Assembly: GCA_010093995.1 (NCBI GenBank)
Contig: ML992504.1
Location: 1,849,394 to 1,908,174, forward strand
Source of the DNA: Elsinoe ampelina
Lineage: Eukaryota
Direction of reading: 5' to 3'
Length of the DNA: 58,781 nt
Part shown: piece after piece, positions 3,934-53,500 of the stretch
Layout: each line of letters starts with the position of its first letter
How positions within the stretch are numbered: position 1 is the stretch's first letter
Translations under genes and position numbers: made by a program
The notes under the pieces: generated by a model
What the model was told of the DNA's origin: nothing
The model's input: the letters and a program-made list of their open reading frames with translations, nothing else
Databases searched by the model: none

Positions 3934-4007
3934 ATATATAAGATAGAGATTTATATACTACTCTCCTTTATACGCTAAGATAGGCTAGCTTACTAATTTA
4001 ACTCGAT

Positions 4008-4471
4008 TATTACGAACTAGTAGAACAAGCTAGAGTATAGAGACGTTAGGACTAATTAAACTACTAAGGTTATTACGTAACTTAGCTTAACGTTTACTTA
4101 GTTCTCTATCTTCTCTAGTAGCTCTACCCTAGAAGCTATAGAGTATATAGGTTACTAGCGGACATATACTTTATATTTCTCCCGACTCTCGCTATAGAGT
4201 ATATAGAGTATATAAAGTACATAAGAGAGAATATATATATATAGAAGTAGTTCTTACCTTATATAAGTACTATAGTTAACCTCGTCTAGATAGTAAACAC
4301 TAGTATTACTAAGGCTAGCCTTTATAATACTATCTAATTATACTTTATTATCTATAAGATATACCTTCTCTAACTCTTACCTTAGTGCTATACTACTATA
4401 GAAGTAGAACTACCTCGTTCTTAGCTTAGCTTAGACTACTAATATAGGCTATGTTTAGACGGTTTATAACA
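4008..4471 (+). repeat. Gypsy 5' LTR
   Basis: Direct repeat of 10567-11030 with T(G>A)TT...AACA termini; the differences seen are transitions. Confidence 0.95.
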
Positions 4472-6566
4472 TTTTAACTACCCTTACTATAGTATAGCAC
4501 GCTATAAGGTTAATAAGTAACTTTCGCTCTAAGTTACTATTAGTATCTTTAATCGCTAGTAAGCTAGAAAAGCTTACTATTAATAACATATCTACTACTA
4601 GTTTAACCTCGGGCGAATATAGAAGGTCTCTTAGTATAGGAGAAGGATAGAGTAAGCCTAAGTTAGAAGTAGAACTCTTCTACGGGGACTACGCTTACTT
4701 AAGGCACTTTCTTATTTAACTTAAAGCCTTCTTCGCTCTAGAGAGAGATAAGTACGCTAACAACGTAGTAAAGGTTCTCTATACTAGGATATACCTAAAA
4801 GGCACTATCTTTAGGTAGTTTAAGCCTTATATAAGTAGCTACCTAGATAGACACCTAAGCCTAGATATAAAGGCTATCTTTAAGAGCTTTAGTATCTTCT
4901 AGGCGAAGATTAAGTAAGTCTTTAACGTATCTAATAAGGAATATATCGCTACGATAAAGTTCCAACAACTATAACAACGTAGGTCTATAGCCTAGTACTA
5001 TTCCTAGTTCTAATAACTCGTAATGTACCTAGACTAGGATAATAGTACTAAACATTTAGTATTCTACTAAGGACTAAGCGACTTAGTTAAAGACTAAATA
5101 ATACTCGAGCTGCCTAATAGCCTCTAAGAACTAGTAGATACTATAATTACTATTAATAACTAACTTTATAAACGATATATAGAACGTTATAGAGAATATA
5201 AGGTAAATACTAGATATACGCGTTTCTCTCGAAACTATAGAGACCCTATAGAACTTAACGCTATACGTAAAGGTTGCCTCTTATAGGTATAAGGCCGAAG
5301 TTATAGAGGAAAGTTCCTTAGTAGAAAAGAGAGAGAGAAGTATAGATAAGACAATCTATGTTTTAAGTATAAAAGACCTAGGTATTAGGCTAGGGACTAC
5401 TAATAAGAGACACTAGCTAATAATTTACATATAATAGTTACTAGGCTAGTAGAGAAAAAGGCTAACACTATTATAGAAGACCTAACGACCTTTAGTATAG
5501 GTAAGGAAATATAGAAGAAGTCTATAATAACTTAAGAGACAATAGAATTCTCTCTAGATGTTATACTTAATATCTCTATAACTAATAGTAAACAACAAAG
5601 CTAATACGTAATACTATTATAAATAGTATATTATAATAACTCTTATTATATTTACTTGTTAGATAAGTAAGAATCTAGTTAGTTTCTATATAAGCTATCT
5701 AAGCGTAGGTAACTAACGAAATAGCTAGACTAGAAACTTAACCTAGAAAGGCTCTCTATAATTATTAGTAACATTAACTAACCTTAGAAGGTAGTTAGTA
5801 ACAATTACTAATATACGATTATTAAGACGAAGTATTAGGACGCAAGTACTATATAATAATATAGTAGCCTTACCTTTAGCTCTTATAGCGAACTATAAGG
5901 AAAGGTATATTATATATTACTCTAGAAATGTATAAATCTAAATTACGAATAGTACTATACTATTTACTTACACGATGTACTTAGAGAAGAGGCTATTAGT
6001 CTTAAATACACTATAGACTTCTTAGTAATCGAAATAGGTAGTACTATTCCTTATAGCTAAGTATAGAAATATACTTAGTATAGCCTTACTAACTATAACT
6101 ATACTAGGGATAGTAGTGACGAAGAGAAATATAACAAAGAATATACTAAATAACTACAATATAATAATATAGATAAAGACTTATCTAATAACAAAGACAA
6201 TAATATACTACTACTAAGTAGACGACTTAAGGCATACCTTATAGAGATATAGAGAAACTATATAATAATATATATCTACTACTAGAATAGAGTATAACAA
6301 GACGAATCTACTTAACTCGTATTTGTCTTTAACGTAAATACCTAGCTCTATCTAGAGAGAATAGTTATACTAATATAGGTATATAATACTACTCGGTGTA
6401 ATTAGTAGAGAATTATTAAACTTTATAGTTACTAAGGGACTTAGGCGCTAGAAGTTTACCTCGCTATATTAAATAATAATAAGACATAACTTGCCTAATA
6501 GATATAGTACTAATAGTAGATATATATAGGAAGGAATTAGCTATTTATCTAAGGAGCTACAATGAC

Positions 6567-6576
6567 AAAAAACTAG
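6567..6576 (+). promoter_or_regulatory. Putative -1 ribosomal frameshift slippery site (AAAAAAC) plus stop codon at the gag/pol junction
   Basis: AAAAAAC TAG about 120 bp upstream of the protease motif; matches the X XXY YYZ slippery consensus. RIP could have created some of the A residues. Confidence 0.55.
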
Positions 6577-9500
6577 CTAGTTATCGCCTAAGGAGGCAAG
6601 ATAATAACACTAGCTAAAGCCTTAATATAATAAAGATCTATATATTAAATTACTTTATCCTAGAAGTCTAGATATAAGGAAATAAAGTAAGAGTAATTAT
6701 AGATTTAGAAGCTAACTATAGCTACGTCTCTATAATAGTTACTAAATAGCTTAAACCTTATTAATATTAGAAGGAGTTACCTTACCTACTTACTATAGTA
6801 GATAGAACCTCTATAGGGAAGGATAGAAAAGTTACTTAGGAACTATAAAACGTTATAATTAAAATTAAGACATATATAGAAAAACGATTAATTAATATAG
6901 TTAATATGTAGTATAATATAGTACTTAGTATAGACTAGCTTTAATAACACAATCTAGACGTAGACTAGATTAAAGAAACACTTAAATTCTCTAAGTACAA
7001 TTATAAGACGTAGGGAGTATAATTAGCTCTATAGATACTAACTATAAGAATAGTATAGGTATAACTAATAGTTAGAGCTATCGCTAGCGTAAGTAATTAA
7101 GTACTTCCGCCGGAATATAAAGACTTCGAGAACTTATTTAAAGAAAGAGAAAGTATTATAGCCTTACTCTAATATAAACTATAGAATTATAAAATACCTT
7201 TTAAAGAGAGTAAATCCCCGACACACTATTAAGGTCTTATACTACTATCGAAATAAGAGAAGGACGTTCTTAAGAACTATATTAATAAGCACTTACTTAA
7301 AGGATTTATATAACTATTAAAATTACCTATTATACATAGAGTACTTTTCGTACCTAAGAAGAATAGAATATTATAAATATATATTAATTACTAGAAACTT
7401 AATATACTTACCTAGAAGAATTACTATCCTCTACCTAGGATTAACAAACTCTAAGACTAACTACTTAGAGCTAAATAGTTCACTGTAATTAATATTAGAG
7501 ACGCTTATTATTAAGTATAAATAAAGGAGAGTAAGGAGTAGAAAACAGCTTTTAGGACACAATAGAGTCTATATAAATACCTCGTTATACCCTTTAGGTT
7601 AACTAACACTCCCATAACCTTCTAAGAGTTAATTAATAACACTCTATAAGAATACCTTAACAACTTTGTCTTAGTATATCTAGATAATATTATTATCTTC
7701 TTAAAGATGTATAATAAACATATAGGACATATTTATAAAGTACTATAGAAACTAAAAGAGAAAGACCTACTAGTAAAACTCTCTAAGTGTAAGTTCTATA
7801 AGCATAAGATATAATTTCTAGGCTATGTTATATCTACTAATAGTATTAGACCCGATCTAAAGAAGATTAAGTTAGTAAATAACTAGCCGGAACCTATAAT
7901 AGTTAAGGAGGTTTAAGCGCTACTAGAGTTTTTTAACTACTACTATAAGTTTATTAAGGGGTTCTCTAAGGTAGCTACGCTAATATCTAACTTTATAAAA
8001 AAGAAAACTAGCTTTATCTTTAACGAAAAATATAGGTAGGCCTTTAAGGAGCTAAAGCTTAGACTTATAATAGTACTTATCCTAGTACTCTTTAACCTAG
8101 ACTAATAAGCACTACTAGAAATAGATACCTTAGACTTTATAATAGAAGTATATCTAGCGTAGAAAGACATATAGGGACGACGCTACCTAATTATATACTA
8201 CTTACGAAAAATAACTAGGCCTAAACTTAACTACGATATATATAACAAAGAATTACTTATAATTATAAAAGCATTCCGCGAATAGCGTATATACCTAGAA
8301 GGAATAACCTTACCTATATAAGTCTACACCGACTATAAGAACCTATTATATTAGATAATAACTAAGGCTCTTAATAGACGATAGGTTTAATAGTTAGAAA
8401 CACTTATAAGCTATAACTTTTAGATCTACTATATTAAGGAATTAGAGAATAGTAGAGTAGACGCTCTTAGCTAATAACTAGACTACTTAAAGAATATAAC
8501 AATAATAGAGGCCTCTATACTAAAGTAGTAAGACGGCGCTTTAGTCTATAAGCACCCGAAGGTAAAGTAATTATATAGCCTTACCTAGGAGCTTATATAA
8601 GAATAGAAAAAAGAAGTTATTTAAATATACTATAATAACTTAACTACGGGACATAGTAGGATTAATAAGACTATTAAACTTATTACATAAAACTACCTAT
8701 AGAAAGAACTCTAAAATAATATTAAGATATATATTACTATATATAATACATGCTATAAGTCTAAGCACTTACGACATAAGCTATATAGCCTACTATAACT
8801 CTTACTACTACTAGATAAACTATAGTAATTAGTTATAATAGACTTTATAGGACCTTTACTACTATTAGAAGAACCTCTTATAGATGTAAAGTATAATAGT
8901 ATTCTAGTCCTAGTAGATAGATTTACGAAGTATTACTACTTTATACTATATAAGATAATAGCAACTACCGAGGATATAGCCTTTACCTTTCTTTAAATAA
9001 TTATTTTATAACACGGAGTACTATAAGACCTAATAACTAATAGAGATAAGCTATTTACGTTATAATTCTAGTAATTATTTATAGACCTACTAGGAGTTAA
9101 ATATAAGCTATTAATCTTCTTTTACCTATAAACGAATAAATAAACTAAATAGGCAAATTAAGTACTAGAGTAGTACCTATAATACTACCTAAACTATAAG
9201 TAAGACTTATAGGTAACACTATTACTACTTACGGAGCTTGCTATTAATAATAGAAAGTCCGTAAATAGAGTTTTACTATTCTATGTAAACTATAGAATAT
9301 ACTCGAATCTATACTACGACATACTTAAAATTAAGCTAGTATCTAAGGATGCTAATATACTAGTTACTAACATTAAGAAACTATATAACTAGCTATACTA
9401 TAATATAGCATTTATATTATAAAGAATAGTAGAATTTACTAACTAGACGAGAATTGCGAGACTAATTCTATAGAAGAGAGAGAAAGTTTATCTCCTTAGT

Positions 9501-9949
9501 AAAAATATTAAAACAAAATAACTAAGTAAGAAACTTAACTACACTAAACTAGGACTCTTTAAGATCCTAGAAAAGAAAAACAAGAACGTATATAAACTAG
9601 AACTACCGAGATATATAAGGATCTATTTAGTTTTTTATATATTACTACTAGAGAAAGCACTATAGAACGCTATACTCGGACCTATCGAACTAGACGAAGA
9701 AACATAAGAGCTATAGTATAAGATTAAAAGGATTTTATATTATAAACTTATAAAAGAAAAATGCTACTATTTTATTTACTAGAAGGGACATTAGTATAGT
9801 AAAGTAATATAGGAACTAGAGGAATACCTTACCTCGTAAGTAATTCTAAATTACTAAATTAAAAACCTATTCTAAGTAAACTAACTAGGTAGGCCCGACG
9901 CTACTACTACTAAACAAAAACAAGAATGCTCTAGGAAGACTACTTAGCT

Positions 9950-10492
9950 AATAGAAGTACCTTAATCGTTACTAAATAGAGAACTCTAATTAGAGTTAAG
10001 CATAAATAATTACTAGTTCTATAGTAGGATAGGATCTACTAATAATAGTATTTCTTTCTACTCTAAGACTTAAATATAAGTCTCCTCTAGAGAGATTACT
10101 TTCTCTACCTTATCCTTTAACTTTTATATCTCTTCACATAGGCGAAGCTTATCACCTATAGCTCTCTAATAAGCCTCTTTTACCTTTTTATAAGCTTCTT
10201 TAGCTTCCTTTCTAGTAGCCTTAGCTATAACTAATTCCTTTCGTAAATAAATATACTTAGACTAGAGACGCTACTATTCTAATTTTGTTACTTAAATATT
10301 ATAACTAGAGTAGTTACTTATAATATACTAGCTATAGATACTTAACCGAATATAGACCTTATAGTCTAGCCCCTTCGATTTATAATAAGAATAAGCCTAT
10401 AGCATATTAGTTCTAAATAGTTTAATAAACTCTAAAAGATTCTTTCGTATAGATATACTAGATTTACTATGCCTTTAATAACTAGAAGGCAT
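9950..10492 (-). pseudogene. Antisense accessory ORF relic in the Gypsy 3' region: Zn(II)2Cys6-spaced Cys cluster plus coiled coil
   Basis: ATG at 10492. Six TAT codons (TGT after reverting G>A) fall in Cx2Cx6Cx8Cx2Cx7C spacing, followed by LRKELVIAKATRKEAKEAYKKVKEA...KLRLCEEI.KLKDKVEKVISLEE. Stops are only TAA/TAG. The 3' end is approximate. Confidence 0.7.
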
Positions 10493-10566
10493 ATTTAGTA
10501 TATAGCGCGTAAAGATAGAGAAGAATACTTACTTGTTAGGATAACTTAATTAAAGAAGAAGAGTAA

Positions 10567-11030
10567 TGTTATAAACTAGTAAGATAAGCTAGAGCATAGA
10601 GATGTTAGAACTAATTAAACTACTAAGGTTATTACGTAACCTAGCTCGATATTTACTCGGTTCTTTATCTTCTCTAGTAGCTCTACCCTAGAAGCTATAG
10701 AGTATATAGGTTACTAGTAGACATATACTCTATATTTCTCCCGACTCTCGCTATAGAGTATATAGAGTATATAAAGTACGTAAGAGAGAATATATATATA
10801 TAGAAGTAGTTCTTACCTTATATAAGTACTATAGTTAACCTTGTCTAGATAGTAAATACTAGTATTACTAAGGCTAGCCTTTATAATACTATCTAATTGT
10901 ACTTTATTATCTATAAGACATATCTTCTCTAACTCTTACCTTAGTGCTATACTACTATAGAAGTAGAACTACCTCGTTTTTAGCTTAGCTTAGACTACTA
11001 ACATAGGCTATATTTAGACAGTTCGTAACA
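10567..11030 (+). repeat. Gypsy 3' LTR
   Basis: TGTT...AACA, preceded by the purine-rich tract aaagaagaagagtaa and followed by TSD TCGAT. Confidence 0.95.
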
Positions 11031-11807
11031 TCGATATAGACATAGGCTACGTTATACTAAGAAGTAATACTAATTAGAGATCTAGAAACTTCGCCGATAT
11101 CTAGCCTAAATAGATAATCGAGATATCTCTAACTTTGCTTAATAGCTATAGAACCTCTTACCTATTCTACTTTACTATACTCCTCTCTAGAATAACTACT
11201 TTATATTATAAAGAAGTAATTTAAGCTATAATTAATAAATATTATACTAGTAAAAAGCCTTTAACCTTTATAGAACTTACCTAGTGTTATCTAGGTATTA
11301 ATCGAATAACTCTCTCTTAATATATCTAGAGTAAGTATACTATAGTATTAGAAGCTACTATACTATAATAACGACTTACCCCTATATAAGAGTAAGCTCT
11401 AGTAAGCTATATTAAGTATCTAATTAATAGTAGTTATCTACTAACCTATACTATAATTAGTAAACTTACTAATTAAATTCTCTAGCATAACTAGAAGTAT
11501 AACTCCTCTACCCCTTATTAGTTATAGCCTTAGCCTATCGGTTAGAAGTAGCCTTATAAGTTCCTTAAGCGCTATTTAGAACTCTTCCTTAAGTACACTT
11601 AAGCTCTCGATAGTAAAAGAGTAAATAAGAACTAAGATCTAGCTTTAATTAAGTCGTAGTTTAACATCCTAGAAGCGACGATTAACTAGTATAATATTAA
11701 TAGTTATAACATATATAACATAGATAAGACTAGATATATAATAGGCTAAACTAGCCTAGCTTAGTTAGTTATTAAGAGAGACTTAAAGGCACTAATATAC
11801 TACTAAC

Positions 11808-12010
11808 TATTAAGTAGAAGGCACATTTAGAGGTGGAATATTATATAGAACTAATTATACACTAATTAGGTAATAGACGAGTTAGTTAATTAAAAGAAGT
11901 CTATCTACTAGAAGAAAGAACAGCTATAAATCCCTAGGCCTTAGCATTATATAACTTAAAGTTATATAACTTTATAGCCTAATTATCTAGAGAGAGCTAT
12001 ATTCTTAACA
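11808..12010 (-). repeat. Nested Copia 3' LTR
   Basis: 203-bp direct repeat of 24785-24987. Confidence 0.93.
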
Positions 12011-15000
12011 CTCCTGCTTAGCTCCTATAGATAAGCTATTAGGTTAATAATAAGCTAAGTTGCTTTATAAACCTTATAAAGATCTAACCTTATAATAGCT
12101 TAGTTAACCTATTAGCTACTATATCTACTCTCCTTATAAACTTTACTTAAATCCTCTAGTCCCTCTATAGCCTCCTAACGTAGTAGTAAGTAACATTAAT
12201 ATACTTTACCCTTTTATAAGTATATAGCTCTTTTATAAGTAAAAGAGCTACTTAGTTATTACTATTAATCCTAGTAGTAAAGAGTAATCTTATTATTACT
12301 TTCTAAGATTCCTTTATAATTAGTCTCTATAGTAATTGCCTAACTATCTTATAATAGCCTATGTCTTTTAGTAACTAAGATAGGAACTATAATCTCTTTA
12401 TATAAGAGTATATTACTATATATTTAGCCTCTATAGTAGAGGTTAAAATAGACTTCTACTTTCTACTTATTTAGCTAATAGAACTACCTACAAGTATAAA
12501 GATATATCTAAGAATAGAGACCCTATCTAACTTGTCTAAGGCATAGTCTAAATTAGAGTATTCCTTAAGAGTCTTATTTCTATTCCTTCTAAATATAATA
12601 CTAAGATCTTTAGTTAATCTAATGTATCTTAATATCTTCTTTATTTTAATAGTATAACTATCTATTAGATCTGCTATAAACTAACTTAGCCTTCCTAAGG
12701 CAAAGGTAGTATCTAGCCTTATTAGGGTACTAAGGTATATCTAGCTTCTAATAGTATATAAGTACTTAGTTTTACTAAACCTTATATTATCTTCCTAAGC
12801 TCTTTAAGGGAGCTTATTATCTATTAGCTACTTTATTAGAGTGACCTTATTAGAGGTTATATTAAGCCTCTATAGCATATTATCTATATAGTAGGTTTAA
12901 TTAAGTCTTAAGGTGCTTTATTATCTATCCCTTATAACTTTAACCCTAAGAACTTTATTAACCTTACTAAGATCTTTAATCTTAAAGATCTTACTAAGTT
13001 CTTACTTAAACTACTAAATATTCTTCTTGCTTTATACTATAAATAGTATATTATTAACATAAACTAAGAGAATAATCTTCTTATTATAGTATATAAGAAG
13101 ATAGAGATCTACTTCACTCTAAGTAAAGCCTAGCTTTAGGAGCTTAGAGATATAATACTAGTTCTAGTCTCTAGTAGCTTACTTAAGTCTATATAAGCTC
13201 CTTAGAATCTAGAAGGCAAATCTAGGACTAACCTTTAGTCTAGGTAGTAGCCTTATATAGATCCTTTTATAAAGAAAAGACTTTATAAAGGCGTTATTAA
13301 TATCTACCTAGTAATACTTAAGGTTATATATATAAATAATAGCAAAGAATAGCCTAAGTGTATCTACTCTAACTATTAGTATAAATATGTCTTTATAGTT
13401 AATACTATACTTCTATAAGAAGCCTCTAGTAACTAGTCTAGCCTTAAACTTTTTAATAGAGCTATCTATATTATACTTAACATTAAAGACCTATTTAGAT
13501 GTTACTAAGTTAGATCTCTTTAGAGAAATAACCTCTTTCTATATATTGTTTAAGTATAGAGTATTAAGCTCTATATTAATTACTTTCTGCTATTTGCTTC
13601 CCTATACTAGATTAGTAATAGCCTTATAGTAGTCCCTTAGGATTAGGACATGTTACTTAATAGAGGCTATTATAGTAATCTTATTAACCTTATTTTACTA
13701 ATTAATATACTTAGTAATAAAAGCTCTATAGTACTTAGCTTTAGAGCCTTTATTATTAGAGTTATTATCTCTTAATCTCTTAAGTAATTAACTTATATAG
13801 TTAGTTAGTAAAGATTAAACTATTAGCTCTTTTCTATATTAGAAATCTATAAGGTTAATAGAGTTAACTCTTAGGATCTTAATATATAAGAAGATTCTTC
13901 CTATAGGTACTTTATTCTAAATAGGCTAATTTAGTTAGTCTATCCTAGATCTAACCTTAGTCTAAATCTAAGTTAGTCTACTAACTAGTCTTCTAACTAG
14001 TGCTTAATTACTTATAGTATTAATCCTAATACTAAGATTAATATTACTACCTTTCTTAAACTTAAAGAATTTAATACTTAGTAATATAATTACTACCTTC
14101 CTATTAGGTATCTATATCTTGTATATTCTATTAGATCTATCTATATAGCTAAGAAATACTTCTACTCTCTCTCTATCTATAAGCTTATCTTTTCTTCTAT
14201 ATATAGAAAGGGACTTTAGGTTTATATAGGTATATACCTTATAGCTCTAGACCCTAATATAATTAACTAATAGCTTAATACCTATATAGGCCTTAATAGG
14301 TATAACTTGCTTATTATTAATTATAGGTCTAGTTACTGTCCTGTTTCTTAGATATGTATCTACCTAAACTACTTTAGGCTAGAACTTATTTAGCATCTTT
14401 AAGTCCTTAAGTATTACTCTTATACTATTCTCTAAGGTTTAGATACCTTTCTCTACTAGTCTATTCTAAATTAAATTATATAGCTTAGTAGTTATGTAAT
14501 AGATGCCTTCTTAGTACTTCTACTACTTTAGGATCTTATTAAGTTTACTAGTATTATCTAATCTAGTAACCTTAACCTTAGTATTACTCTCCTTCTTAAC
14601 CCTTAGCTTCTACTTAATAAGCCTTTATAGAGCTTCATCTCTTATCTTAAGTAGTATAATCTATATTATTCTTAAGTAGCTATCTATAAGCTTAAGAAAG
14701 TATCTAAATCCTTCCCTACTTACTTTAATAGAACTATAGATATCTATATAGATAAGCTAAAGAACTTTAAGTCTTCTTTATAAGGTTTTACCTCTTCTAT
14801 TTCTTATCTTTATAAGGGAATAGACCTTATATAGAATAGACAGATTATAGTTTAGGTTAATAGGTTTCTTAAGAGTTATAACTTTATAAAGATCCCTAAG
14901 CTTCTTAATTCTAAGGTAAGTAAATCTCCTATACTAGAGCTAATACTCTATCTTAGAGTTATTAGGTCCTAAGTTAATAAGATTCTCTTATTACTTATCC

Positions 15001-22906: not shown

Positions 22907-24784
22907 TAAATACTAAATTCTAATTAGCTAGATCTAGAATTAAGCTAGGCTTAGATCTAGAATATAGCTTTTAATTAGCTAATTACTTAAAGAGGAATTA
23001 GATAATATATAACCCCTCTCGAATTCTAGCTTTAAGTAATAGTTGCTTTTACTAATTAAGGATAAGAAAAGAATTTAAATTAAGAACTCTAGAAACCTCT
23101 AAATCTAAGTATAGCTTATAATAGAAGACTAAATTTACACTAAGATTAGGTATATAAAGAGCCTATACCTTTATCTTATCTCTCTTCTTAGTCTTAATAA
23201 CTATAGTTTCTATTAACTATAACTAAAAGTGACCCCTCCTAACCTAGATCTATTAAGTGCGAATCTTACTTAATAGGCCTCTAAAGAGAGTTAGCTTGTC
23301 TATTATATAGTTAGATACTCTAGAGTTAAGCATCTACTAATAGTGTAGAAGCTTACCTTAAACCTCTAATATAGAACCTATAGTCTTAAGCTCTTTATTA
23401 CTAGAAAGGACTTCTAGTAGTAGAGATAGAGATATTAATAGTAGACCTTCTTTAGTAGCTAGATAGGCTTTACCTTTCCTCTTTAACTTAGCTACTTTAA
23501 GAGAGTCTATTCTCTTAGTAAGCTACCTTATAAGTCTAATTAGTTTCTAACGTTTAGGTAACTATCTCCTTATAGAGCTACTTCTTTTAGTAACTCTATA
23601 GAATAGCTAGATATACTTCTTAGCTTATTAGAGATAAAGACACCTAGAAATAGTATATCTAGGTTCCTTATATAGGATATATATATAGCTTAAGCTTCTA
23701 CTAGTTCCTTATTATAGTCTGCCTCTTATAAATATTACTATATCTAGCTTCTTTCTCTAATCCTCTTTCTCTCTTAAAATGCTTAGAATAGTTTTAATAT
23801 CTAGCCTAGGCTAGATATTAATACTATCTCTAATAGATTACTAAGATTCTAGGAGAGTACTAAGGAGTTACTATAGCTTAGTAATAGGGAGTTCTATCTA
23901 CCTAGCTTTAGGTATAATATAGATAATCCTTCTTACTAGCTAAGTTAGATATACTTAAGCTTCTATAATAGAGGTCTTCTCTAATATAGTATAGTTAGAG
24001 AACTCCTTTATAAGCTACCTACCTATAGATATAAGCCTCTTAGTGTATTTAGCCTTAAGTATATTCTATACCTACCTTACTCTTGTCTTGCCTTAGATAA
24101 GAAGGTTATTCTTATAGTTAATATAAAGCTTAATCTAGTATAGACAAAGGGCATTAGCCTTTCTAGTCTATAGTAAATACTAGGACTAAGCAATTAGTAT
24201 AGAGGTAGTTAAGAAGGATAGTATATTTAATAAAGAAGCTATTAATAATAATAGTAAATTAAAATTAGCTATGTTATTATTAAGGATATAGGTAACTTCT
24301 TTTATCTTAAGTTATAATTTTATTATACTAAACTAGTGCTTATAGTTTTTATAGCTAAGTTCGGCTATAGGCTTTCTAATTAATAATATATCTATAGTGG
24401 AGAATAAAAATTAAATAAATAAATAAAGGTCAAGTTCTAGAGGTTAATAACCTTTAAGTTAATATAGTTAATAAGGCTAGCTTAGCCTTAGAAGGAACAA
24501 TTAATAAAAACAAAGTTGTTTAGTTATTTATAGCTAATAAATAGTAGCTATTATACAATTATAGAAATAAATCTATAGTAGACATCTTAATTATATTCTA
24601 CTTAATGTACTAAGTAACTAGTCTTTTACGCTTTATACTACCTCTACTAATCTGTCTAAGATTAAGATAATAGAGAGGAAACGGAGGAGAATACTAATAG
24701 AATCTAGCCTAATTTTAATAACGTAGATACTTAACTACGATATATATAATCCTATACTTGTGCTATAGCTCCGAGCTTATAACC

Positions 24785-24987
24785 TATTAAGTAGAAGACA
24801 TATTTAGGAGTAGAATATTATATAGAACTAATCGTATACTAATTAGGTAATAGACGAGTTAGTTAATTAAAAGAAGTCTATCTACTAGAAGAAAGAATAG
24901 CTATAAATCCCTAGGCCTTAGTATTATATAACTTAAGGTTATATAACTTTATAGCCTAATTATCTAAAGAGAGCTATATTCTTAACA
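24785..24987 (-). repeat. Nested Copia 5' LTR
   Basis: 203-bp direct repeat of 11808-12010, adjacent to a PBS-like motif. Confidence 0.93.
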
Positions 24988-26173
24988 CTAACTAGGGAAT
25001 AGAATATAGGCTACAACTATTAAGACTCTAAGTGCTAGTAGCTATTAAATACCCCTCTATATTATTCTTAAAGGTAGTAATATTAATATTAATTAAAGCT
25101 ACTAGCTTACTTAACTATTACTATAAGATAGTATATAAAATAGTAAGATAGTAGTATTATAAAATAGCTAGTTAGATAAGAATTATACTATTAAGTAGTT
25201 ATATCTTTTTTGTAAGTATATAAGACCTTACTATCTAAATTTAATAAAGGAGGTAAAAGAGAAGAATCTCTAGCACTATAAAAGGCTACTTATTATAGAT
25301 AGCTATAGTATATACGAATTACTTCTCTTTTTATTACTTACTTAGAGTAAAGGCCTTATCCTTCTTATTCTCTCTATATACTTAATATACCTTCTTTAGC
25401 CTCTTAATATCTTAATCTTTATAGCTCTAAAGGCTAGCTATCGATATAAAATCTAAGCTAAAGTATACTAAGTAGTTAATAAAATTATATATGTTAATTT
25501 TATTAAGGCCTATTTAAATATTTATAATATTACTTTTAATTATAACGCTTAACTTAACGCTTTTAAAGCTGCCGGAATTTAGCTTTATAATTTATACTAA
25601 GTGCTTAATTAACTTAATAGTCTTATAGCCTTATTCTTTTAAGTCTCCTTAGATAGCTCTCTACTAGACGTTACTCCTTTTACTCTTAATATTACGCCTT
25701 AAACTTAGTATTATTTCGACTATTAGCTTAGCTACTTATAGTACCTTAGCGACCTTATAGTAGAAGTAATAGTAGAGAAGTTATAAAAGAAGTATAGTAT
25801 TACTACTAACACTAATATACTTCTTTATAAGAGAGTAGCTAAGTTAGAGAAAGAGGTAAGAACTAAAAAGGTATAGCTTAAGAATTATATAAAGGCTAAC
25901 ACGTAAGTACTTAATATTAAAGACTTAATTAAAAAGTATAAATAGTAATAGCTACTTAAATAGCTTAAGGAGGAGGCTTATATTACTTATACTTAGCGCT
26001 AGTAAGCTTAAAAGCACTAATAATAGTATAACACTATAAGTCGCTCTTTAGCTATAAAGACTTATAAACTTAAATAGTATAATTTACCTATAAGTAATTA
26101 AGGTAGTAATACCTTAACGCTATATTCTAGTATAATAATTATAAGAAGAGAATTAAGCCTTTAAAAGCCTTAT

Positions 26174-32022: not shown

Positions 32023-33630
32023 CTACTCCAAAGGGAAGAAAGTGCCGTTCTGGCAAGCAAATCCAAGCTCAGGGTTGAGAGACTCAGTAGCATTAAAGCA
32101 GATGACTGAGGCTGGCTCACTCTTCTGCGGCCATATCTCGATACCTGTAAACTTGAAGTCGGAGCATGATGAATTGGTGTTGCACTCCACAATGATCGCT
32201 TGAGTGCCGTCGAGCTGCGGTAGACCAGCGTTGTACCAGCAGGGTTCGGTCACGCAGCTGCCATCTCCTGGGTTGTAACTGTTGATACTACCAGAGATAT
32301 TGACAAAGTTGAAGTTCTCCATAATGACGCTGGAATTGTTAGGTCGTCCAGTGACCTGGCCTGGGAAGAGCTGTGTTTGGTTGGAACCTTGATTGACATA
32401 AGTCTGGGTGACCAGGATCGGCTGGGTAACGTTCTCGAGCCTGATATTGGACCAAGTGATATTCTTTGCAATTCCTTTGCCTCCAATCCACGACTTGAAG
32501 CGAGCCCCATACAGAATGTTGGAGGCTACGTTGTCGTCGAACAGAATGTTCGTCACATTGGCCGCAACCGCCTGATTCTGGCCCAGAGATCCGATACTCA
32601 TTCCGTGACTCTGATAGCCCACGAAGTTCCTGCGAAAGGTGACATTGTGGGAGGGTGACTGGACTGCGATGGCATCGTCGCCATTGCTGATATGAGAGTC
32701 TTGAATGATGATATTTGTGCCCGTTACACCGAAGCCGTCGGTGTTGAACGGGAACCCTCCGTTCGAAGTGGCTTCGATCCGAGCATTACTAACAGTGATA
32801 TTGTCTCCAATAAGCTGCGTGTTCCATGCAATTGGCTTCCAAGATTTGTAGTAATTCATGACCGAGTTGGTAGTGTTAAATCGGAGCAGGTGCGGCCGTG
32901 CGATGGCTCCTGTACCGTTGACCGGGTTCGTGTCCCACCACTGTTGGCCGTATGAATTGATCCAGCCTGTAGTAACATTCGATGTGCCCACGTAGTCGAT
33001 GGATGGGCCCGCGAACCAGAACCAGTAAAGAGTGCCAGCTTGTTGATTGCCGCCTGAAGCGTTGACAATCTCCCTGATAGTGTTAGCATCGTTAAACCAA
33101 CAAACAGTCACGTGTGTCCATGATTCCCCCATGATCGAATGTCCTGCGTGCATCTCCCGGCGAAAGTGAGTCTACCCAGGCCGCCACGCTTGCTCATGAC
33201 CACAACAGCTGAACATCCTCGGAACCACCATTCTTTGGAGCCATCGTCCCACCAGTATGCCGCTGTTGTCTCAGGATATTGCACGTCGTGGAGGTCGTTG
33301 ACTCTCGATCATTGACAAATGTATGAGATGGTGGACTTACTGGACCGCAGTGATGTTGGTCGGCAGATGCAGATTTCCGAGCATTGAGATCTCCACATTA
33401 GACAGATTTGTGGCTTTGATCGGAGTAAGGACATTGTAGTCAACTCCAAGCCCGAATTCCACGACACCATTCACTCCACACTTTGCAAATGCCTTTTGGA
33501 TAGCGGGCGAGTCGTCAAGGGTGCCGTTCGACCTTGCATACTGAGATGGCACCTTGCATCTTTTCGTCCGTCCATGTGCTGCTGCTAGAGTTGCTAAAGA
33601 TAGTAGAGCAAGGTTGTAAAGAGAACGCAT
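32023..33630 (-). CDS. Secreted glycoside hydrolase family 28 (exo-polygalacturonase / exo-rhamnogalacturonase-like); exons 33630-33341 and 33073-32023
   Basis: Signal peptide MRSLYNLALLSLATLAAA, DDSPAIQKAF..C, and GH28 motifs NTDG, GDD, SHG, RFK. Intron 33074-33340 (GTAAGT..GCTAAC..CAG) keeps the frame. Confidence 0.92.
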
Positions 33631-38541: not shown

Positions 38542-40563
38542 ATGGGTATAGGAGAGATGTCATGAAGTCACGGCTGCTTACGGGGGAGGTGGCGATATAA
38601 AATGTGTAATTTCTTGTAGATACAAAGGGGACGAGGAGAATAGATGTACAGTGAATGAGAGAGTTGATCAGAAGACCTAGAAATGACTTACTCGAATGTT
38701 TCGTGGTTGTTGTGAGATGTGATGTGAAGTTGAAGGTGGTGGAGTGGCGACTTCGTGGACGAAGCTTTCCCACATCGCAACTCTCCCAATCACCACAACA
38801 TCCTATGATACGACCTTCCCTTTCATATTAGAACACTCCGGGAGTGTTCAAATCGTCGCTCGGATCGTCGTTCAATGTTTTGTGCCGTCCGACCAAGCAG
38901 AGGCGGCATTCTTCGAAGCTGCAGTCCAGGCCATGCCCGTTACGCATCCTGGATATTGGCTCCATCCGTTAACGACCGGTCTCAATACTCCACCACTAGG
39001 ACGCTCCCAGTCGTACAGGCCACTCGATCGAGTCCGAAGCTTCATGCATGGAGCACGCATCGCGGCCGCCAGTATCGCCTTGGCCATGGCTTGCGACCAG
39101 GAACTCTGACCGTCCACAAACTGTCGAGTTCATACCTCTTTCGCCTATCTCTGCTCAGTGTGTCACTACACTTGTCTGGCGACGGGCGGAGCCTGGCATT
39201 GCCCTTCAAAGCATCAAGTACTGATGCTTGACACAAGGACGTCGGCGAAACCAGCAGCCTGACATTTTCGGGCGATCAGGAAGTTCCAGCATGCGGTTTC
39301 CAAGGCGAATCAAAGTGACCAATTCGCTGCGAGTTGGACACTTTAGCTGTACGTCGTCGGATCGCTGGCAGGCTAATCCCAGCCGTGTTCTAAGCCGCCG
39401 CAGCGTCAGTATGGTCTGTCATCAGAGGCCGCTGACAAATGCAGCTCCGGGAGAGGGATTGGACATGGCTAACAGTACTTATACTTATGAGCGTCAATGA
39501 TCAGGCGACCCCCCAGATATCAAAGACCCGTTGATCAAGTCCTATCTCGTCTCTGCCACATCGTCGACCTCGAATGACAGGTCATCGCCTTTCGCGCTCC
39601 AGTCCAACAATGTCCAGGACTACCGGCCCGGCTGCAATCGACAGAATAATGTCGCTGAGCCTGGGTCTCACGTTCACTCAGGCCTAGGGGAGAATGCAAT
39701 CGCAAAAAAGCATCAACAAGAGACATCACGGTTGACATATGTTGCGGATGAAGGCAAAGAAGATGCGGAAGCTCAGCACCAAGCATAGAAAAGGATCAGG
39801 GGATGAGTCTACCAGACAACAGCATCGCGGGGTTTAACCGAATTGTAAGAAACGATCTGGGGCCTCCAGGTTTTCTGGCGAATCAAAGCACGCGCAATGT
39901 GCCGCGAAAGACAAAACGATATCCCGCAGGACGCCTCTTCGTCTGGGGAAGGGTTTGGAAGAGACGACCCAAGATCCGGAGCACGCGGAAGTGTCTACGG
40001 CATTTGCTCACGTGTATCAGTGAGTCGCAGCCACCAGCAAAGTCAACCTCCGCGTCTTGCTTGGATGGAAGCCTTTTGGCCAAAACTGCAACACCGTCCT
40101 TGGCTTCTGTACCGGTCGAGGGACAGGCGAAGCGCTGCTATCAGCACGGGGAAGGCGAAGGTGTTCAATATGTGGTGTGAAGCTGTACAGACGCGTGTCG
40201 ATCCTGTCATGAACGAGTACTCACCATAGCGACGGGTCGGACGACTTGCAGAAACCACGATGAGTTCGCAGATTCGTGATGTCGCGGAACAGCAGGATGG
40301 GAGCTTGGAGCTTGGCATGCGCCGCCCCATCGCCCTATTGGATGGCTAGGAAGAGAAGCTCGCTTCGTCCCAAGACCTTCTTGGGTCTCTCCCTCCTCTT
40401 AAACGGTCCCGCTTTCTCTATATATCTAACCAGGTCGTCTCGATACGAGATTCCAGGTTGCTGGTTGAGTCGTCTCTGTAACTTCTGTGGTCGTCTAGAC
40501 GGAGGATACCCGCCAGAAATCGACACAAACACACCTTGCCGGGAACAACACCGCATTGGCAAC

Positions 40564-44524: not shown

Positions 44525-45478
44525 TCATGGTATTTCTTCCTCGTGCCCCATTACGACGTCTAGAGCTTTTCGACTCAACGCCACGGTGTGTTCCAGCGCG
44601 GACAGCTTCGCGAGGGCAGCCATCAAGCTGGGATCTTGTGTTTCAATCTTGAGCTTTTCCCTGACCTTGACCAATTGGTTGCGATACGTAAAGACCTCGT
44701 CTGCCTCATCGTGTCTAGGCGCTGGGGGTGCTCCTAGAGCTTGCGCCAGACGATCTCTGATACTCAGCCCCGAGTATGTCTGTGAATAGGTGGAATTTGG
44801 TGTAGACGCTCCAGTGCTGCTGCCTTCTGGTGCTGGCTCAAGTGTGCGTACGGTAAACACTAAGCCGGCATCTGCAATAGCAAAGTGTAACGACACTGGG
44901 CCTGGCAGAGGAGGGTCGAATATCTGCTTCGCTAGTGGTGCCTCATGCCATGTCTTGACCGTGTCCGTCCCTCCTTTTAATTCGTCCCTCGCTTCCTGGA
45001 CATTCTCATGCAGCAGCCGTAGTTGACTTGATATGTACCCGGCATTGTTGGCATCACCAGTCCATCTTGTGGCGTCGACAACGTCGAGAGAATAGTTCAA
45101 TAAAGTGCGCGCGGATATGAGCTGATCCACGACCAAGGCGGGAGCTGTAGGAGAGGAGGATATGGCTAGGCGATAGCTGGGCTGACCGCTAACCCGAGGG
45201 AGGGAGGACATGCGCAGGTGAATGTCGCCTTTTGTGATGCGTGCGCCATTGAGTGTGACAAAGCCTTTGAGGCTTTCGGATCGCTGAGATGATAGCACGA
45301 GTGTCGAACCAGAGTCGCGTGGCGCGAGAAGGGCTGAGCATTCTTCGAGGCCGGCTTTGATCGATTGGAGTGTTTCTTGTAGAGCGGACAGCAGCCATTC
45401 GAGCTCGCGCGTAAGGCACGATTGTCGTTCCTTCTCGAGCTGATCCGCAGGTGCAGGCGGCCATATAGCTGTCGACAT
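44525..45478 (-). CDS. RAV2: RAVE complex subunit 2 / Rogdi family, 317 aa
   Basis: RELEWLL..LQETL.SIKAGLEEC..LL.P...STLVLSS.RSE.LKGFVT..G..I.KGD and C-terminal VREKLKIETQDPSLMAALAKL.ALEH are typical of fungal Rav2/Rogdi proteins (recognised from memory). Confidence 0.85.
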   Translation of the reverse strand: MSTAIWPPAPADQLEKERQSCLTRELEWLLSALQETLQSIKAGLEECSALLAPRDSGSTLVLSSQRSESLKGFVTLNGARITKGDIHLRMSSLPRVSGQPSYRLAISSSPTAPALVVDQLISARTLLNYSLDVVDATRWTGDANNAGYISSQLRLLHENVQEARDELKGGTDTVKTWHEAPLAKQIFDPPLPGPVSLHFAIADAGLVFTVRTLEPAPEGSSTGASTPNSTYSQTYSGLSIRDRLAQALGAPPAPRHDEADEVFTYRNQLVKVREKLKIETQDPSLMAALAKLSALEHTVALSRKALDVVMGHEEEIP

Positions 45479-48934: not shown

Positions 48935-49074
48935 TGTTGTACTTGGCAAATCGGATCGAGAGACGTGTGTTTCATTCAGAGAGTTACAATAACCGATTAT
49001 CTACTGTGCGTGTGCTGACTCATCAGTACCAGTCCTTCAGTACCAGAGAAGCTGTACCAGCTTAAGTTACAACA
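48935..49074 (-). repeat. Copia 3' LTR
   Basis: TGTTG...CAACA; differs from 55603-55742 at one position. Confidence 0.97.
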
Positions 49075-49395
49075 CTCCCCCTCTGGTATAGATTGTTGAA
49101 GCTGAAGAACTGGCCTGTCACATGTGACTAAGGTGATTAGGTCATTACCTCATCTTATATGCTTGCTTGTGATTGTTAGCTTAAGCTAATCATTGGTGTT
49201 GATTCACCTCTAAATGCTTGTAAAAGGTCAGTAGCAATAGAAGCCTTTAATAATAGCTAGGCATCCATTGTTTATGTAAATAGTCTAGCTTATAAATCTC
49301 TATCAAAGAAGATATAAATAACTAGCTAGCCTCCTTATAATTTCTCTTTCCTTTATTACACTTATAGTAATAGCCTCCTCTTTTACACCAATTTA

Positions 49396-50538
49396 ATAGC
49401 TTCTAATACATTAGTTAACTTCTTTAACTATGCTTAACTCCCTTGTATAAGTTCTACTAGGGATAGAGTTGTCCTAACTAAGGCTTAGATTGTTATTGTC
49501 CTTGATATAATAAAGAGAGTTATTAAGTTACGTAGCCTTATAATCTCTATAAATAGCATTATTAGTGTCTCCTTCTTTCTCCGCTCTTTAAAGAAGTCTA
49601 GAGCGCTTAAGAGACTCTCTAGTCTAGCTTAGACTCTACATGTTAAGGCTTTTACTAATAGAGACAGAGCTTATAATATAGTAGTTGCTATTAACATAAC
49701 TAAGGCTAATAAGCTTATTAATATTAGTACTAAGACTTCTACTAACAAGTACTACTTACTAGCTATCTTAATACATTATATAAGGGGTAGAACTATCTAT
49801 TTAAACCTAACCTACTACAATGTTAAGATTGCTAACGGCACTTACATCTTAAAGACTTTTAAGACTTATGTAATGTTCTAGCAGATTTATAGAGGTGCCT
49901 ACACTAACTGTATATACCCTAACAAGCGTAACAAGTGCAACTTCTAGTCCTAAACTTCTAAGGATATCTTCTTCTAGAGCTAGGGTCTCTCCCTAAAGAA
50001 GACTACTTAGCCTTTAACTCCTACTAGTCTATCTACTCTAACTAGTCCCTTAGGTAGTTTATCTTATAGTTGTCGCTCTTCTACTACTAGCTTTGCTTCC
50101 GGAGTGACTAGAAAGATTTCTATAGACCTAATTAGAGACACTAATGTCCTAAGGCTAAGGTAGGCTAAGGACAAATACTTTATTCCTACCCTAGCTCTAG
50201 CTAGATTTAAGCTATAGAATCCTAGCACTTAGGCTAGATTTGTAGCTAAGTTTAGGGACTATGCCGACAATTGTAACTTAATCTAGAGGAAGCTAATAAG
50301 GGGTAACAATATAGTTAGGCTATAGATATATAGGTAGGGCTTAGAGCTTAAGGAATAGGAGAGGATCCTAAGGAGCATATCTAATATAAGCTTGTCTCTA
50401 ACTCCTAAAGGGACTCTACTAACTACTAAGTCTAGTAGTAACAAGGGAAAGGGGAAGAAGAGGAGTAGTTCTAAGTCTAACTCTAAGGGCTCTCTATAGA
50501 AGAAGAAGTAGACTTACTTAATAGGCTATAGTAGGTGA
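49396..50538 (+). pseudogene. Antisense accessory ORF relic (about 380 codons) in the Copia 3' region, with DUF3716-like Cys motif and basic C-terminus
   Basis: One frame from ATA (ATG reverted) at 49396 to TGA at 50536-50538, interrupted only by TAG/TAA. It contains TF(E)T(C)VMF.QIY(G)GA(C)TNCIYPNKRNKCNF near 49855-49944 and KGKGKKR...KKK near the end. Confidence 0.72.
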
Positions 50539-53500
50539 ATTAAAGGCGGCCTTAGTGGCTTAGGATAGTAGATAGTAAAGGTGTTATAGTAGAGAATAGT
50601 GGATTAAGCTTAGGCTTAAGCAGCTAGTAATATAGTAGAGATAGCTATTTCCTTTCTCTCTTTTTAATAGTAAAGCAGTAAATACTACTTATAAGCTTTT
50701 AACAAATAAGATAGCTTAATAAGTGTAATAGTATAGTATTATACTTTAAATAACAATACAAATGAAATCTAAACGAGTGTATAGTGCTAAAGAGCACTAA
50801 CTAACTAGCCTTATAATTAGTAAAGGATCTTGTTAGGAGACTTAGGCTTAGTAAGTGCATTAGCCAATTACTTAGTTGTGTTAATATACTCTAGCTTAAT
50901 AGTACTAAGCTTATGTTGCTCCCTATAGTAGTGGTTCCTTAGATTAACATGCTTTAATCTTCTTAAGTTAGTATAATCTTTAGCTAGCTTAATAGCTAAC
51001 TTGTTATTAATAAAGATCTTAACTAGGCTAAGGTTAATATTAGTAAGGGGCCTAAGTTTAGTGACTAAATTTCTGAGCTAATTAACTTCTCTATAGGTCT
51101 TAGTTAATGTAAGATACTTAGCTTCTATACTTAATAACACTATAACCTTCTAGAGTCTTAACTTCTAGATAATAGGTGTACTAAGCATATAGATAATAGT
51201 CCTAGTAGTTAATCTTAAGGTCTTATTATTACTAGCAAAGTCAGAGTCTAAGTAGGCCTAAATAGTATTACTAAGGGAGCTATTAGTCCTCTTAAAGGTA
51301 AGGCTATAATTGATAGTCCTATTAACATATCTCTAGATCTGCCTACCTGTAATAACATAAGCTACTAAAGGATTTTATAGGAATCTAGCTAAGTAATTAG
51401 TAGCATAGCTAATATCTAGCCTTGTATTGTTAGCTAGATACTATAGCTTACTAATAATTATATTGAACTTTTAATAGTTATTAGCATTAACCTAGCCATA
51501 ATTTAGTCTATAGATCTTGTTAATAGGATGCTTAACTATTCTTACATAGAGAAGGTTATAACCTTTAAGCTTCTCCCTAGTATAGTATAATTGCTTAATC
51601 TTAATTATATCCTTAGTTCTATAGAGTTAAACACTAAGGAAGAGGTTAGAGTTTATAACCTTCATAGGGAATTTAGTATAAAGATCTTAAACTAGCTTAT
51701 TAGCATGTTTCTACTAAGTGGCAATAATTCTAAAGTTATCTACATATACTAACACAATATAGAACTTGCTAATAAAGAGACATATATCACTCTCTAACCT
51801 AGTAAAGCTAAGTAACTTAAGAGCTTTAATAATAGCCTTATACTAGAGAGCTACTACTTGCTTTAGGCTATAGAGTCCCTTTATAAGGATAATAAGCTTA
51901 TTAGCTAAGTCTTTAATTAGGACTCCCTTAGGGCAGCAGATGTAGTTCTTAAGATTAATATCTAGCCTAAGGAATGTAGTAATTATATTAGCTATTATAA
52001 TTACCTAGTTGTAATAGAGGGCATATATAAGAATAACTCTTCTAGTTTCTACTCTTAGTGTTAGAGTAAAGGTCTTAACAAAGTTAATGCTAGCTCTTTA
52101 TATAAAGCCTCTAGCTGTCTATCTAGTCTTAAACTTGTCAATAGAGCTATCTAGTAGCCTCTTAGTCTTAAATACCTATTTTCCAGTTATTGGTCTATAT
52201 CTAGCTAGGGCTTAGGATCTCTTAATAATCTTAAAGGTTCTAGTCTCTATTAATAAGTTAAACTTAGCCTTTATTGCAGCTTTCTAATGTTTGGCCTTAG
52301 GGCTTAAAAGAGCTTCTTTTACAGTTTAAGGGTCTAGCCTAAAGGTATTAGAGGATCTACCTCTAGTAATAGTAGTAGCATTCCTAATTACCCTACTAGA
52401 ATTAAGTGTTCTATAGTCTATCTAACGATATAATCTTAGTAATCTTCTAACTAATCTTACTAATAATAGTAGAGGTGATGTTAATCTTCTTCTTTTTCTA
52501 GTAATAGGAGTTATATAGAATAGTGTTATAAGTATATTAACATCCTCTATAGTTGTTAGTATAAGTAGTTAGTTAGCTATGTGTTTAGGTAGGTCATATA
52601 TTAAGTAAGACTCTCCTAGTACTTCTAGTAGAAGTGTAGTAAGATCTTCTATAATATGATCTTTAGTAGGAGGCTCTAATTAAGGCTCTCTCTAATTATT
52701 AGAGGGCTTAGATTAAGGCTCCTCCTGTTCTTAGATAGGATAAGGTAATTAGAGTAGAGTTTAAGCTTTAACTTAGGGGTTATTACTTCCTAAGGAAGGG
52801 TCTTTAGCCTAAGTGTTATAGAGGTCTTGTTAAAATTAATAATCTAAGGTTTCTAGATTCTTATAACTAAATTGTGTATTGTTTTGTCTAATAAATGTCT
52901 ACTCCCCCTAAAGCTATAAAGCCTTAGGTCTAGCAGTCTATAGATTCTTTGTCTATAGGATATATAGTTGTTTAAGAGGCATATAAGACTAATCTAGATA
53001 TGTAAGGTCTTTATTAAATATAACATAAGGAGTAGTAAAGAACCTGTTCTTCTATTTGCCCTTAGTTTAATACTAGTATAGTTGCTATATTAGATAGTTA
53101 GTAGTGGAATTTCTTTGTATTCTAATATACTATCTAAGCTAAGCTCTTACTTAGAACTTGTGTAATCTTAGGACATTATAATTATAGATATATACTCTAC
53201 ATCTAAAGCGTCTAATGTGTAATACTAAGATAGAATTAGTAGTGATCTTTAGGTCTTTATTAAGGACCTAGAGTAGTATCTTCTTAGTTTTAGTGTAAGT
53301 AGTTCTATTAATAACATAGATAGTAAATTCAATAACTAGATTCCAGAATTCTAGGGGAATCCTATAGTCAATAAAGATGCATCTTGTCCTTATAATAACA
53401 ACCTTATTAGTTAATTCTGCTCTACTATTCTAGTAGTAGGTATATAGTAATAAGATATTCTATCTCTAAGTATAATGCTAGATCTATACTCTAAGCTTAA

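Follow-up and report, generated by a model that had tools for sequence, protein, structure and literature searches.

A dead antisense gene in a Ty3/gypsy chromovirus of Elsinoe ampelina and its candidate role as a transposon-encoded DNA-binding regulator

Can a minus-strand reading frame broken by stop codons, in the AT-rich remains of a retrotransposon, be what is left of a gene? This question is raised by a stretch of 58,781 nucleotides from the fungus Elsinoe ampelina (NCBI GenBank assembly GCA_010093995.1, contig ML992504.1, positions 1,849,394 to 1,908,174), which is called the window throughout. It contains a Ty3/gypsy retrotransposon of the chromovirus type, and between the chromodomain and the 3′ long terminal repeat (LTR) of this element lies a frame on the strand opposite to gag-pol, here termed the antisense open reading frame (aORF). 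An original prediction, made from the letters alone, saw in it the remains of an ancestral small dimeric DNA-binding protein with a GAL4-type cysteine cluster, disabled by repeat-induced point mutation (RIP). The comparison with intact relatives bears out the gene, and makes it likely that the frame in the window is a dead copy, in a RIPed chromovirus, of a gene whose intact protein serves as a dimeric DNA-binding regulator made from an antisense transcript.

Read from the ATG at 10492-10490 down to position 9950, the minus-strand frame comprises 181 codons. It is interrupted, as had been claimed, by TAA and TAG only: there are 16 stops, six TAA and ten TAG, with no TGA. Six TAT codons (34, 37, 44, 53, 56 and 64) show the 2-6-8-2-7 spacing that had been described and account for six of the ten tyrosine codons within residues 34-64; the helical E/K/R/A-rich stretch reported behind them is found as an E/K/A-rich region at residues ~85-140. 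The ATG does lie close to the 3′ LTR, at a distance from the LTR start (10567) that measures 74 nt and not the 75 first given. Taken alone, these single-copy features, the stops and the tyrosine pattern, do not exceed what chance gives in such RIPed DNA. Of the 5981 stops in the AT-rich block 1000-27000, 24 (0.4%) are TGA, and the restriction to TAA and TAG is uninformative for the aORF because TGA-free stops typify any frame of that block. The stop density of the aORF frame (8.8%) falls within the range of the other frames (7.9-14.4%), beside 8.4% for the true pol frame and 7.9% for one frame antisense to pol, and the pattern Yx2Yx6Yx5-12Yx2Yx6-8Y has seven starts among the block's 51,996 six-frame codons. 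A blastn search found no second copy of the element's 3′ region elsewhere in the window.

The observation is judged real because intact relatives match it, a matter that the single copy could not settle. With its stops masked as X, the frame was compared by phmmer with 1.84 billion representative sequences and gave seven matches, the best of them (E 4.8e-12) pairing query residues 10-148 colinearly with residues 15-153 of a 199-residue protein. A word-indexed protein search with the same masked frame yielded 131 candidates, none at E <= 1, and a Pfam search of the masked minus frames found no family. The phmmer matches are proteins of 150-211 amino acids that read ...MPRACSNCRRLGVECKVHVRSGICGKC...CDVRVTQEEWSRL... 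before a long charged stretch, and the intact protein P0003, with ...ACSNCRRLGVECKVHVRSGICGKC...CDVRVTQEEWSRL, returns the reconstructed ancestral peptide of the original prediction nearly residue for residue. A profile search extended the family to 44 members. None carries a precomputed Pfam domain; one, from Lithohypha guttulata, is labelled 'Zn(2)-C6 fungal-type domain-con...' in UniRef. A family hidden Markov model (HMM) built from an alignment of 42 proteins (A3) has its sole match in the six-frame window at 10040-10474 on the minus strand (E 2e-18, HMM positions 11-154); weak scores at 45012-45083, 39092-39169 and 32199-32264 were dismissed as noise, and no Pfam Zn_clus match accompanies them.

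The alignment also explains the tyrosines. The first three cysteines of the family are invariant in A3, and the other three, together with a histidine and a glycine, recur in at least 90% of its 42 proteins (P0048 is without that part). All six chosen tyrosines of the window align with these conserved cysteines, an additional Tyr47 (TAT) aligns with the family histidine (98%), and the stop at codon 169 (TAG) aligns with a tryptophan. The interpretation of the TAT codons as RIPed cysteine codons is thus upheld, since the intact relatives have Cys at these positions and not Tyr, His or Arg. Among 63 columns conserved in at least 70% of the family, the window is identical in 30, differs in 27 by changes reachable through C>T or G>A alone, and fits neither description in six. 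Because 57 of the 63 columns are therefore identical or RIP-reachable, far above what permuted codons give (mean 11.6, maximum 23, none of 5000 reaching 57), the minus frame is a RIP-killed pseudogene of a conserved family of ~150-220 amino acids. Its substitutions relative to the family turn Gly, Ala, Asp and Glu into Ser/Arg, Val, Asn and Lys. The window copy itself does not qualify as an intact frame, given its 16 stops and a cysteine cluster that is TAT throughout. The homologous part runs a few codons past 9950, to ~9926, which places the uncertain 3′ end of the gene at ~9926-9950. Two database proteins, P0006 and P0008, also carry Tyr in place of the family's Cys (as in ...RIYRVYVRSGRYGYY...) and appear to be gene calls on RIPed copies like that of the window.

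Where intact copies of the gene sit was established from a scan of metagenome contigs, which supplied 22 loci of relatives. The six-Cys motif is kept in 19 of them, and 16 hold open frames of 152-207 amino acids that start with 'MP...' or 'MS...' (13 distinct after removal of identical loci), in line with the expectation that intact relatives would conserve the ORF. In 19 of the 22, the C-terminus of a chromoviral pol lies convergently and directly downstream of the aORF, so that an antisense ORF between chromodomain and 3′ LTR is indeed a feature of intact chromoviruses. Pfam identified 11 of 12 neighbouring ORFs as reverse transcriptase-RNaseH-integrase-SH3-chromodomain proteins or the C-terminal part of one; the twelfth, an upstream ORF in L022, was rejected as pol and is an unrelated leucine-rich repeat protein. 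One contig, L019, offers just 92 bases downstream, too short to judge pol. The two loci L012 and L013, identical in sequence, show a gag fragment and not pol 636 nt downstream of the aORF. In L013 (9977-11607) an intact aORF of 175 amino acids stands by an opposite-strand gag-like fragment with DUF4939 and Retrotrans_gag matches, both below cut-offs; no pol was found within 10 kb of this aORF, and the region lies between AT-richer stretches of a 115-kb contig. L012 and L013 may represent an internally deleted element that has retained the aORF.

The geometry of the full elements is tight. In 11 of 14 loci the tails of the aORF and pol frames overlap by 4-185 nt, and on the other side 44-113 nt separate the ATG from the inner end of the LTR (...GTAACA, followed by the complement of the polypurine tract) in 15 of the 16 full-length loci; the aORF takes up all the room from pol to the polypurine tract. 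The window belongs to this antisense class between pol and 3′ LTR, with a pol alignment that ends at 9836, the aORF at 10492-~9926 and the LTR from 10567. The aORF occurs across elements whose pol proteins share 43-74% identity and is a recurrent component of copies and lineages, not a one-off transduction. It is, from gene order and sequence, a conserved antisense accessory gene of ascomycete chromoviruses.

The aORF proteins of these loci are 35-71% identical, and frames that stay open at such divergence speak for protein-coding constraint. Selection among the intact relatives, a check that had been proposed for the prediction, points in the same direction: nonsynonymous differences per site (pN) are below synonymous ones (pS) in 116 of 116 pairs, with a median pN/pS of 0.54 and a maximum of 0.74, a ratio that is a rough measure because the synonymous distance (dS) is below 1.5 in one pair only and synonymous sites are saturated. 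The identities of aORF and pol are uncorrelated (Spearman 0.01 over 28 pairs from eight loci among L001-L017). L006 and L008, for instance, share 67% of the aORF and 45% of pol, and L003 and L007 share 45% and 74%, respectively. This hints, from a small sample of non-independent pairs, at recombinational exchange of the 3′ module between chromovirus lineages. Two contigs repeat their ends at 100% identity (L006, 1-127 and 7285-7411; L010, 1-123 and 6790-6912) and are either assemblies collapsed circularly across the LTR or circular forms, with units of 7284 and 6789 bp. The short contigs L005, L008, L011, L014, L015, L016, L018 and L019 were considered as transcripts; this is not callable, and they have no poly(A) ends.

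What kind of protein does the intact gene encode? The family spacing, Cx2Cx6Cx8Cx2Cx7-8C, falls within the Zn(II)2Cys6 consensus Cx2Cx6Cx5-12Cx2Cx6-8C, and the residues after the second cysteine are basic (CRRxGRxC). Within Pfam, Zn_clus (PF00172) is the family that the largest share of the proteins match (24 of the 42 have E <= 10, the best being 0.0071), yet no member reaches its gathering cut-off of 21 bits (P0007 scores 12.1 bits and P0003 9.7); DUF3716 matches ten of the 42, with a best E of 8.4e-5. A profile comparison with PDB sequences brought up LAC9 (E 0.27-0.34) and LEU3 (E 0.14-1.1) with the six cysteines in register, at E-values (0.14-1.1) that are not significant. AlphaFold2, run on the 42-sequence alignment, gave a model with a mean predicted local distance difference test score (pLDDT) of 83.5. 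It bears out the described layout, in which a long helix comes after the six-Cys cluster of a small protein. The first helix spans 23-37, two short ones (46-51 and 65-70) each open on a CxxC pair, and a single helix of ~95 residues takes up 82-176 (pLDDT 96-99). A low-confidence tail follows, with the conserved ...LALSP.TWSA.DG.PDDFW..., and in our reading this acidic-aromatic tail resembles an activation domain.

When the model was compared with 350,542 PDB chains by Foldseek, the leading ranks were nearly all Zn2Cys6 DNA-binding domains (Hap1, Leu3, Pho7, Put3, Gal4, Ppr1, Cep3, Lac9 and AlcR), with weak scores (best E 0.39, probability <= 0.47). The ranking was alike for the full model and for a separate 72-residue model of the domain (pLDDT 82.1). 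The domain is labelled 'Zn2Cys6-like' because the spacing agrees with the consensus, the fold is consistent but weak, and the Pfam threshold is not reached. Of the predicted GAL4-type cluster, then, the six-Cys spacing stands and the fold matches rank first, if weakly, but the Zn_clus score stays below its cut-off, and to judge from these comparisons membership of the GAL4 family would hold in part. The family is without the fungal middle-homology domain. No longer fused forms (476-2000 amino acids) were found, which is weak evidence, and in the ESM Atlas its clusters are confined to Ascomycota, are called 'hypothetical protein' and have no Pfam families.

The predicted dimer receives support from modelling. 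A homodimer of two chains with four zinc ions obtained an interface score (ipSAE) of 0.46 (runs 0.45-0.47) against 0.01 for the best control. Of 30 proteins solved as pairs, 21 attain this mark, compared with none of 23 that were solved as single chains; at least 81% of contacts are common to the runs, with a partner pLDDT of at least 74. The model thus supports homodimer pairing, with its polarity uncertain. The contacts are antiparallel and centred on residue 116 (for example 95-137 and 116-116), and such an antiparallel rod would set the two clusters ~14 nm apart. The zippers of Gal4-type dimers are short and parallel. The dimer job, moreover, ran without the family alignment and with zinc, which is absent from the calibration. 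It is important to weigh these points together with the Pfam scores below cut-off, the non-significant PDB matches and the saturated synonymous sites, as all of them count against taking the aORF for the gene of a GAL4-like dimeric regulator.

According to the mechanism that we propose, the intact protein of ~190 amino acids would consist of a short basic N-terminal helix, a GAL4-spaced six-Cys cluster, a pairing helix and an acidic disordered tail. It would bind two zinc ions per chain and contact DNA as a homodimer. Its role would be to regulate transcription for the element that encodes it, most likely by activating that element's LTR as a minimal GAL4-like factor. Its antisense transcript would start in or just inside the 3′ LTR, as with HBZ of human T-cell leukaemia virus type 1 (HTLV-1), an antisense-encoded, 3′-LTR-driven dimeric basic leucine zipper factor. 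Because the aORF ATG sits 74 nt from the LTR, the promoter is expected either in the 3′ LTR, in antisense direction, or in the 74-nt spacer; it is geometry that suggests transcription from the LTR. The copy in the window has died through RIP-type transitions that left the six cysteines and the conserved histidine as TAT and 16 sense codons as TAA or TAG. In its fullest form, with chromoviruses carrying their own minimal GAL4-like factor, encoded antisense, driven by the 3′ LTR and binding LTR or host sites in order to activate or steer the element or to shield it from silencing, the proposal is tentative, and we hold it to be possible rather than probable.

Several other explanations deserve attention. 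The antisense gene could be real and its cysteine cluster no GAL4-type module but a knot, held by zinc or disulfides, for binding RNA or protein; the product would then be a structural or chaperone-like factor acting on element RNA, cDNA or particle, or an inhibitor of copy number. We consider this unlikely, as the spacing fits the binuclear-cluster consensus exactly and the basic residues of CRRxGRxC follow the second cysteine. In Zn2Cys6 domains helices begin at each CxxC pair; the same is predicted here, with no knuckle-type hairpins, and two independent models agree in placing Zn2Cys6 domains in nearly all leading Foldseek ranks. If instead the transcript mattered and the ORF were incidental, antisense RNA made from the 3′ LTR would anneal to the genomic RNA, thereby fuelling or dampening RNA silencing. 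The tail-to-tail overlap of aORF and pol in most loci means that any antisense transcript would be partly complementary to genomic RNA, and such a possibility has been raised for antisense ORFs of plant elements (PMC7264820). That the frame has stayed open for 152-207 codons at 35-71% protein identity, that its Cys, His, Gly and Trp columns are invariant, and that pN is consistently below pS leave this explanation with only a slim chance.

A chance pattern in AT-rich RIPed DNA, with the region being a long 3′ untranslated spacer, can appeal to the seven tyrosine patterns in the block, the 0.4% TGA and the ordinary stop density. It is refuted to near certainty by the phmmer and HMM matches, which are colinear over nearly the full length, by 57 conserved columns where permutations reach 23 at most, and by a position and orientation that are those of intact elements. 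The reading of the aORF as a dead gene for a dimeric DNA-binding regulator remains the one that we prefer.

The wider setting of the gene is that of a RIPed repeat. The window consists of two AT-rich blocks (~1000-27000 and ~49000-55500, GC content ~0.24-0.35) amid gene-rich DNA with a GC content of ~0.5-0.6, a pattern of blocks that is that of a fungal genome subjected to RIP. A Ty3/gypsy chromovirus, inserted complete and now heavily RIPed, occupies positions 4008-11030 between the two copies of a target-site duplication. Its features are as follows.

4003-4007, no strand: target-site duplication TCGAT, left copy, read directly, with the identical five bases at 11031-11035.
4008-4471, plus strand: 5′ LTR of 464 nt, with the termini TATTACGAAC...TTTATAACA, which correspond to RIPed TGTTAC...GTAACA.
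4837-9836, plus strand: gag-pol of a Ty3/gypsy chromovirus, RIP-degraded, from Pfam and tblastn.
9926-10492, minus strand: aORF, RIP-inactivated antisense accessory gene, from phmmer, the family HMM and the conserved-column test.
10393-10301, minus strand: six-Cys cluster of the aORF (Zn2Cys6-like), codons 34-64, followed by a coiled-coil region and an acidic tail.
10530-10550, plus strand: relic of a hairpin (GGA loop) in the spacer that separates the polypurine tract from the start of the aORF, from alignment A5.
10552-10566, plus strand: polypurine tract AAAGAAGAAGAGTAA, abutting the 3′ LTR, read directly.
10567-11030, plus strand: 3′ LTR of 464 nt, beginning TGTTAT, from blastn and repeat search, with its ends read.
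11031-11035, no strand: target-site duplication TCGAT, right copy, read directly.

The LTR pair is 93.7% identical over 458 nt (5′ LTR versus 10574-11031 by blastn) and contains an ungapped core of 300 nt in the repeat search. With X at the stops of the plus strand, Pfam recognises RVT_1 (1.6e-17), RT_RNaseH (5.3e-13) and SH3_Tf2-1 (6.5e-8) in gag-pol, with weaker matches to Integrase_H2C2 (4e-4) and Retrotrans_gag (a weak E of 2.5e-4); in addition, residues 60-1151 of the intact pol of L001 align by tblastn to 6561-9836, reaching into the chromodomain. The relatives have polypurine tracts of the GGGGAGGATAG type at the same site as the tract of the window. Directly after the gypsy element come two direct repeats of 206 nt (11807-12012 and 24784-24989; 12,977 bp apart, 94% identical), which may represent the LTR pair of a different RIPed element, one that is larger or nested; the family HMM found no aORF-family copy associated with it in the six-frame window. 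In a small AT-rich block close to the end of the window, 57741-57805 matches the pol of the element (5349-5413, 80.6% over 67 nt, opposite strand, by blastn) and is a further degraded gypsy relic.

The spacer between the polypurine tract and the aORF start has a structure of its own. In A5, an alignment of the tract-proximal region from 12 relatives and the window, the spacers of the loci between L001 and L018 form a hairpin with a stem of 4-7 bp and a loop A/G-GGA in which GGA is invariant. For a 4-bp stem, 78.8% of cells are paired, compared with 60.2% after shuffling (none of 500 shuffles reaches this), and cells with changes on both sides number 12 against 3.7, the stem varying on both sides among loci; RNAalifold predicted no pairs for the A5 region. 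The hairpin may act in cis in the genomic RNA, close to the polypurine tract, or it may belong to the promoter or leader of the aORF. TATAA-like words occur in several of the spacers between ATG and LTR.

DNA contigs of the source organism provide a view of other copies. Over 9600-10700 there are 2956 contig pieces in run X1 and 2027 in run X2, and as all 30 of 30 bins are covered by thousands of pieces, the aORF belongs to a highly repeated RIPed family and is not a private insert. The differences in X1 comprise 150 transitions (A>G 44, T>C 48, C>T 30, G>A 28) and three transversions. Among the best-supported 40 of 164 variant positions, none is at the middle base of the six Cys codons, so that a G there is neither confirmed nor contradicted; 10386 T>C (codon 36, TAT to TGT) is a variable position of the family, and 10382 A>G (codon 37, TAT to TAC) affects a third base. 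Contigs of organism B (run X3) cover the pol-end bins only, plus a trace at 10155-10228.

How does the aORF compare with known systems? An antisense gene of Boty-like elements, brtn, is said to have been described by Zhao et al. in 2011 (Virology 417:248). In the citing passages, brtn of Botrytis cinerea is placed between pol and 3′ LTR of a Boty-like Ty3/gypsy element (PMC8365987, PMC7264820, PMC4227169, PMC5987419), which makes it alike in position: a fungal chromovirus with an extra antisense gene between pol and 3′ LTR. They also tell of a Monilinia transcript reported to match both 'truncated Pol' and BRTN, and on that account it fits the tail-to-tail layout of pol and aORF described here. 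A difference is that these same passages make no mention of a zinc cluster. P0043, an NCBI-sourced protein of 161 amino acids from a record of 1338 nt, may be BRTN, which is a guess. With GAL4-type factors the family shares the spacing of the six cysteines, and with Leu3 in particular a histidine between the third and fourth cysteine; the helices modelled at the CxxC pairs and a helical dimerisation element after the cluster would be further likenesses. It differs from them in staying below the Pfam threshold, in having a ~95-residue helix that is modelled antiparallel, in its lack of a middle-homology domain, and in being encoded by a transposon and not by a host gene.

The likeness to HBZ is one of analogy: both would be accessory regulators encoded on the minus strand next to the 3′ LTR, with a coiled-coil dimer and a DNA-binding-type domain. 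HBZ is nevertheless an unrelated protein with another DNA-binding fold from an animal retrovirus, and transcription from the LTR, here suggested by position, has been shown for it. An antisense promoter in the 3′ LTR of HTLV is mentioned in PMC7264820, which also lists plant antisense ORFs between pol and 3′ LTR (Grande gene23, RIRE2, Retand and PvRetro13). These resemble the aORF in position, orientation and presence in most copies, and some are given there as nuclear proteins (PMC7264820); by contrast, they belong to non-chromovirus lineages, show no visible sequence relation and have no recognised DNA-binding cluster. The statement that the aORF is not part of the standard gag-pol layout is thus true, but antisense ORFs that lie between pol and the 3′ LTR already form a described class (PMC7264820, PMC8365987). 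Among open-access full texts, none was found that connects antisense ORFs of LTR retrotransposons with Zn2Cys6 proteins. Position and orientation of the aORF have published precedent, and its protein appears to be uncharacterised.

Most LTR retrotransposons are thought to depend on host factors to be transcribed, with accessory regulators seen as a retroviral speciality. For the window itself the outcome is modest: an ordinary dead pseudogene in a RIPed repeat block. Annotation is affected as well: databases carry the family members as 'hypothetical protein', without a Pfam domain, and they could be miscounted as host transcription factors. Should BRTN prove different, the aORF would be an undescribed gene family; should the proposed function be true, it would parallel, in fungi, the transactivators of retroviruses (HBZ or Tas, for example) and, given swapping between pol lineages, would be a mobile regulatory module. 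A gene that bears the marks of a small, dimeric factor of the Zn2Cys6 type, and is held in a fixed place and orientation across divergent fungal chromoviruses, merits attention as a candidate transposon-encoded DNA-binding regulator, and it makes testable the question of whether fungal transposons encode such a regulator of their own, and what its target would be.

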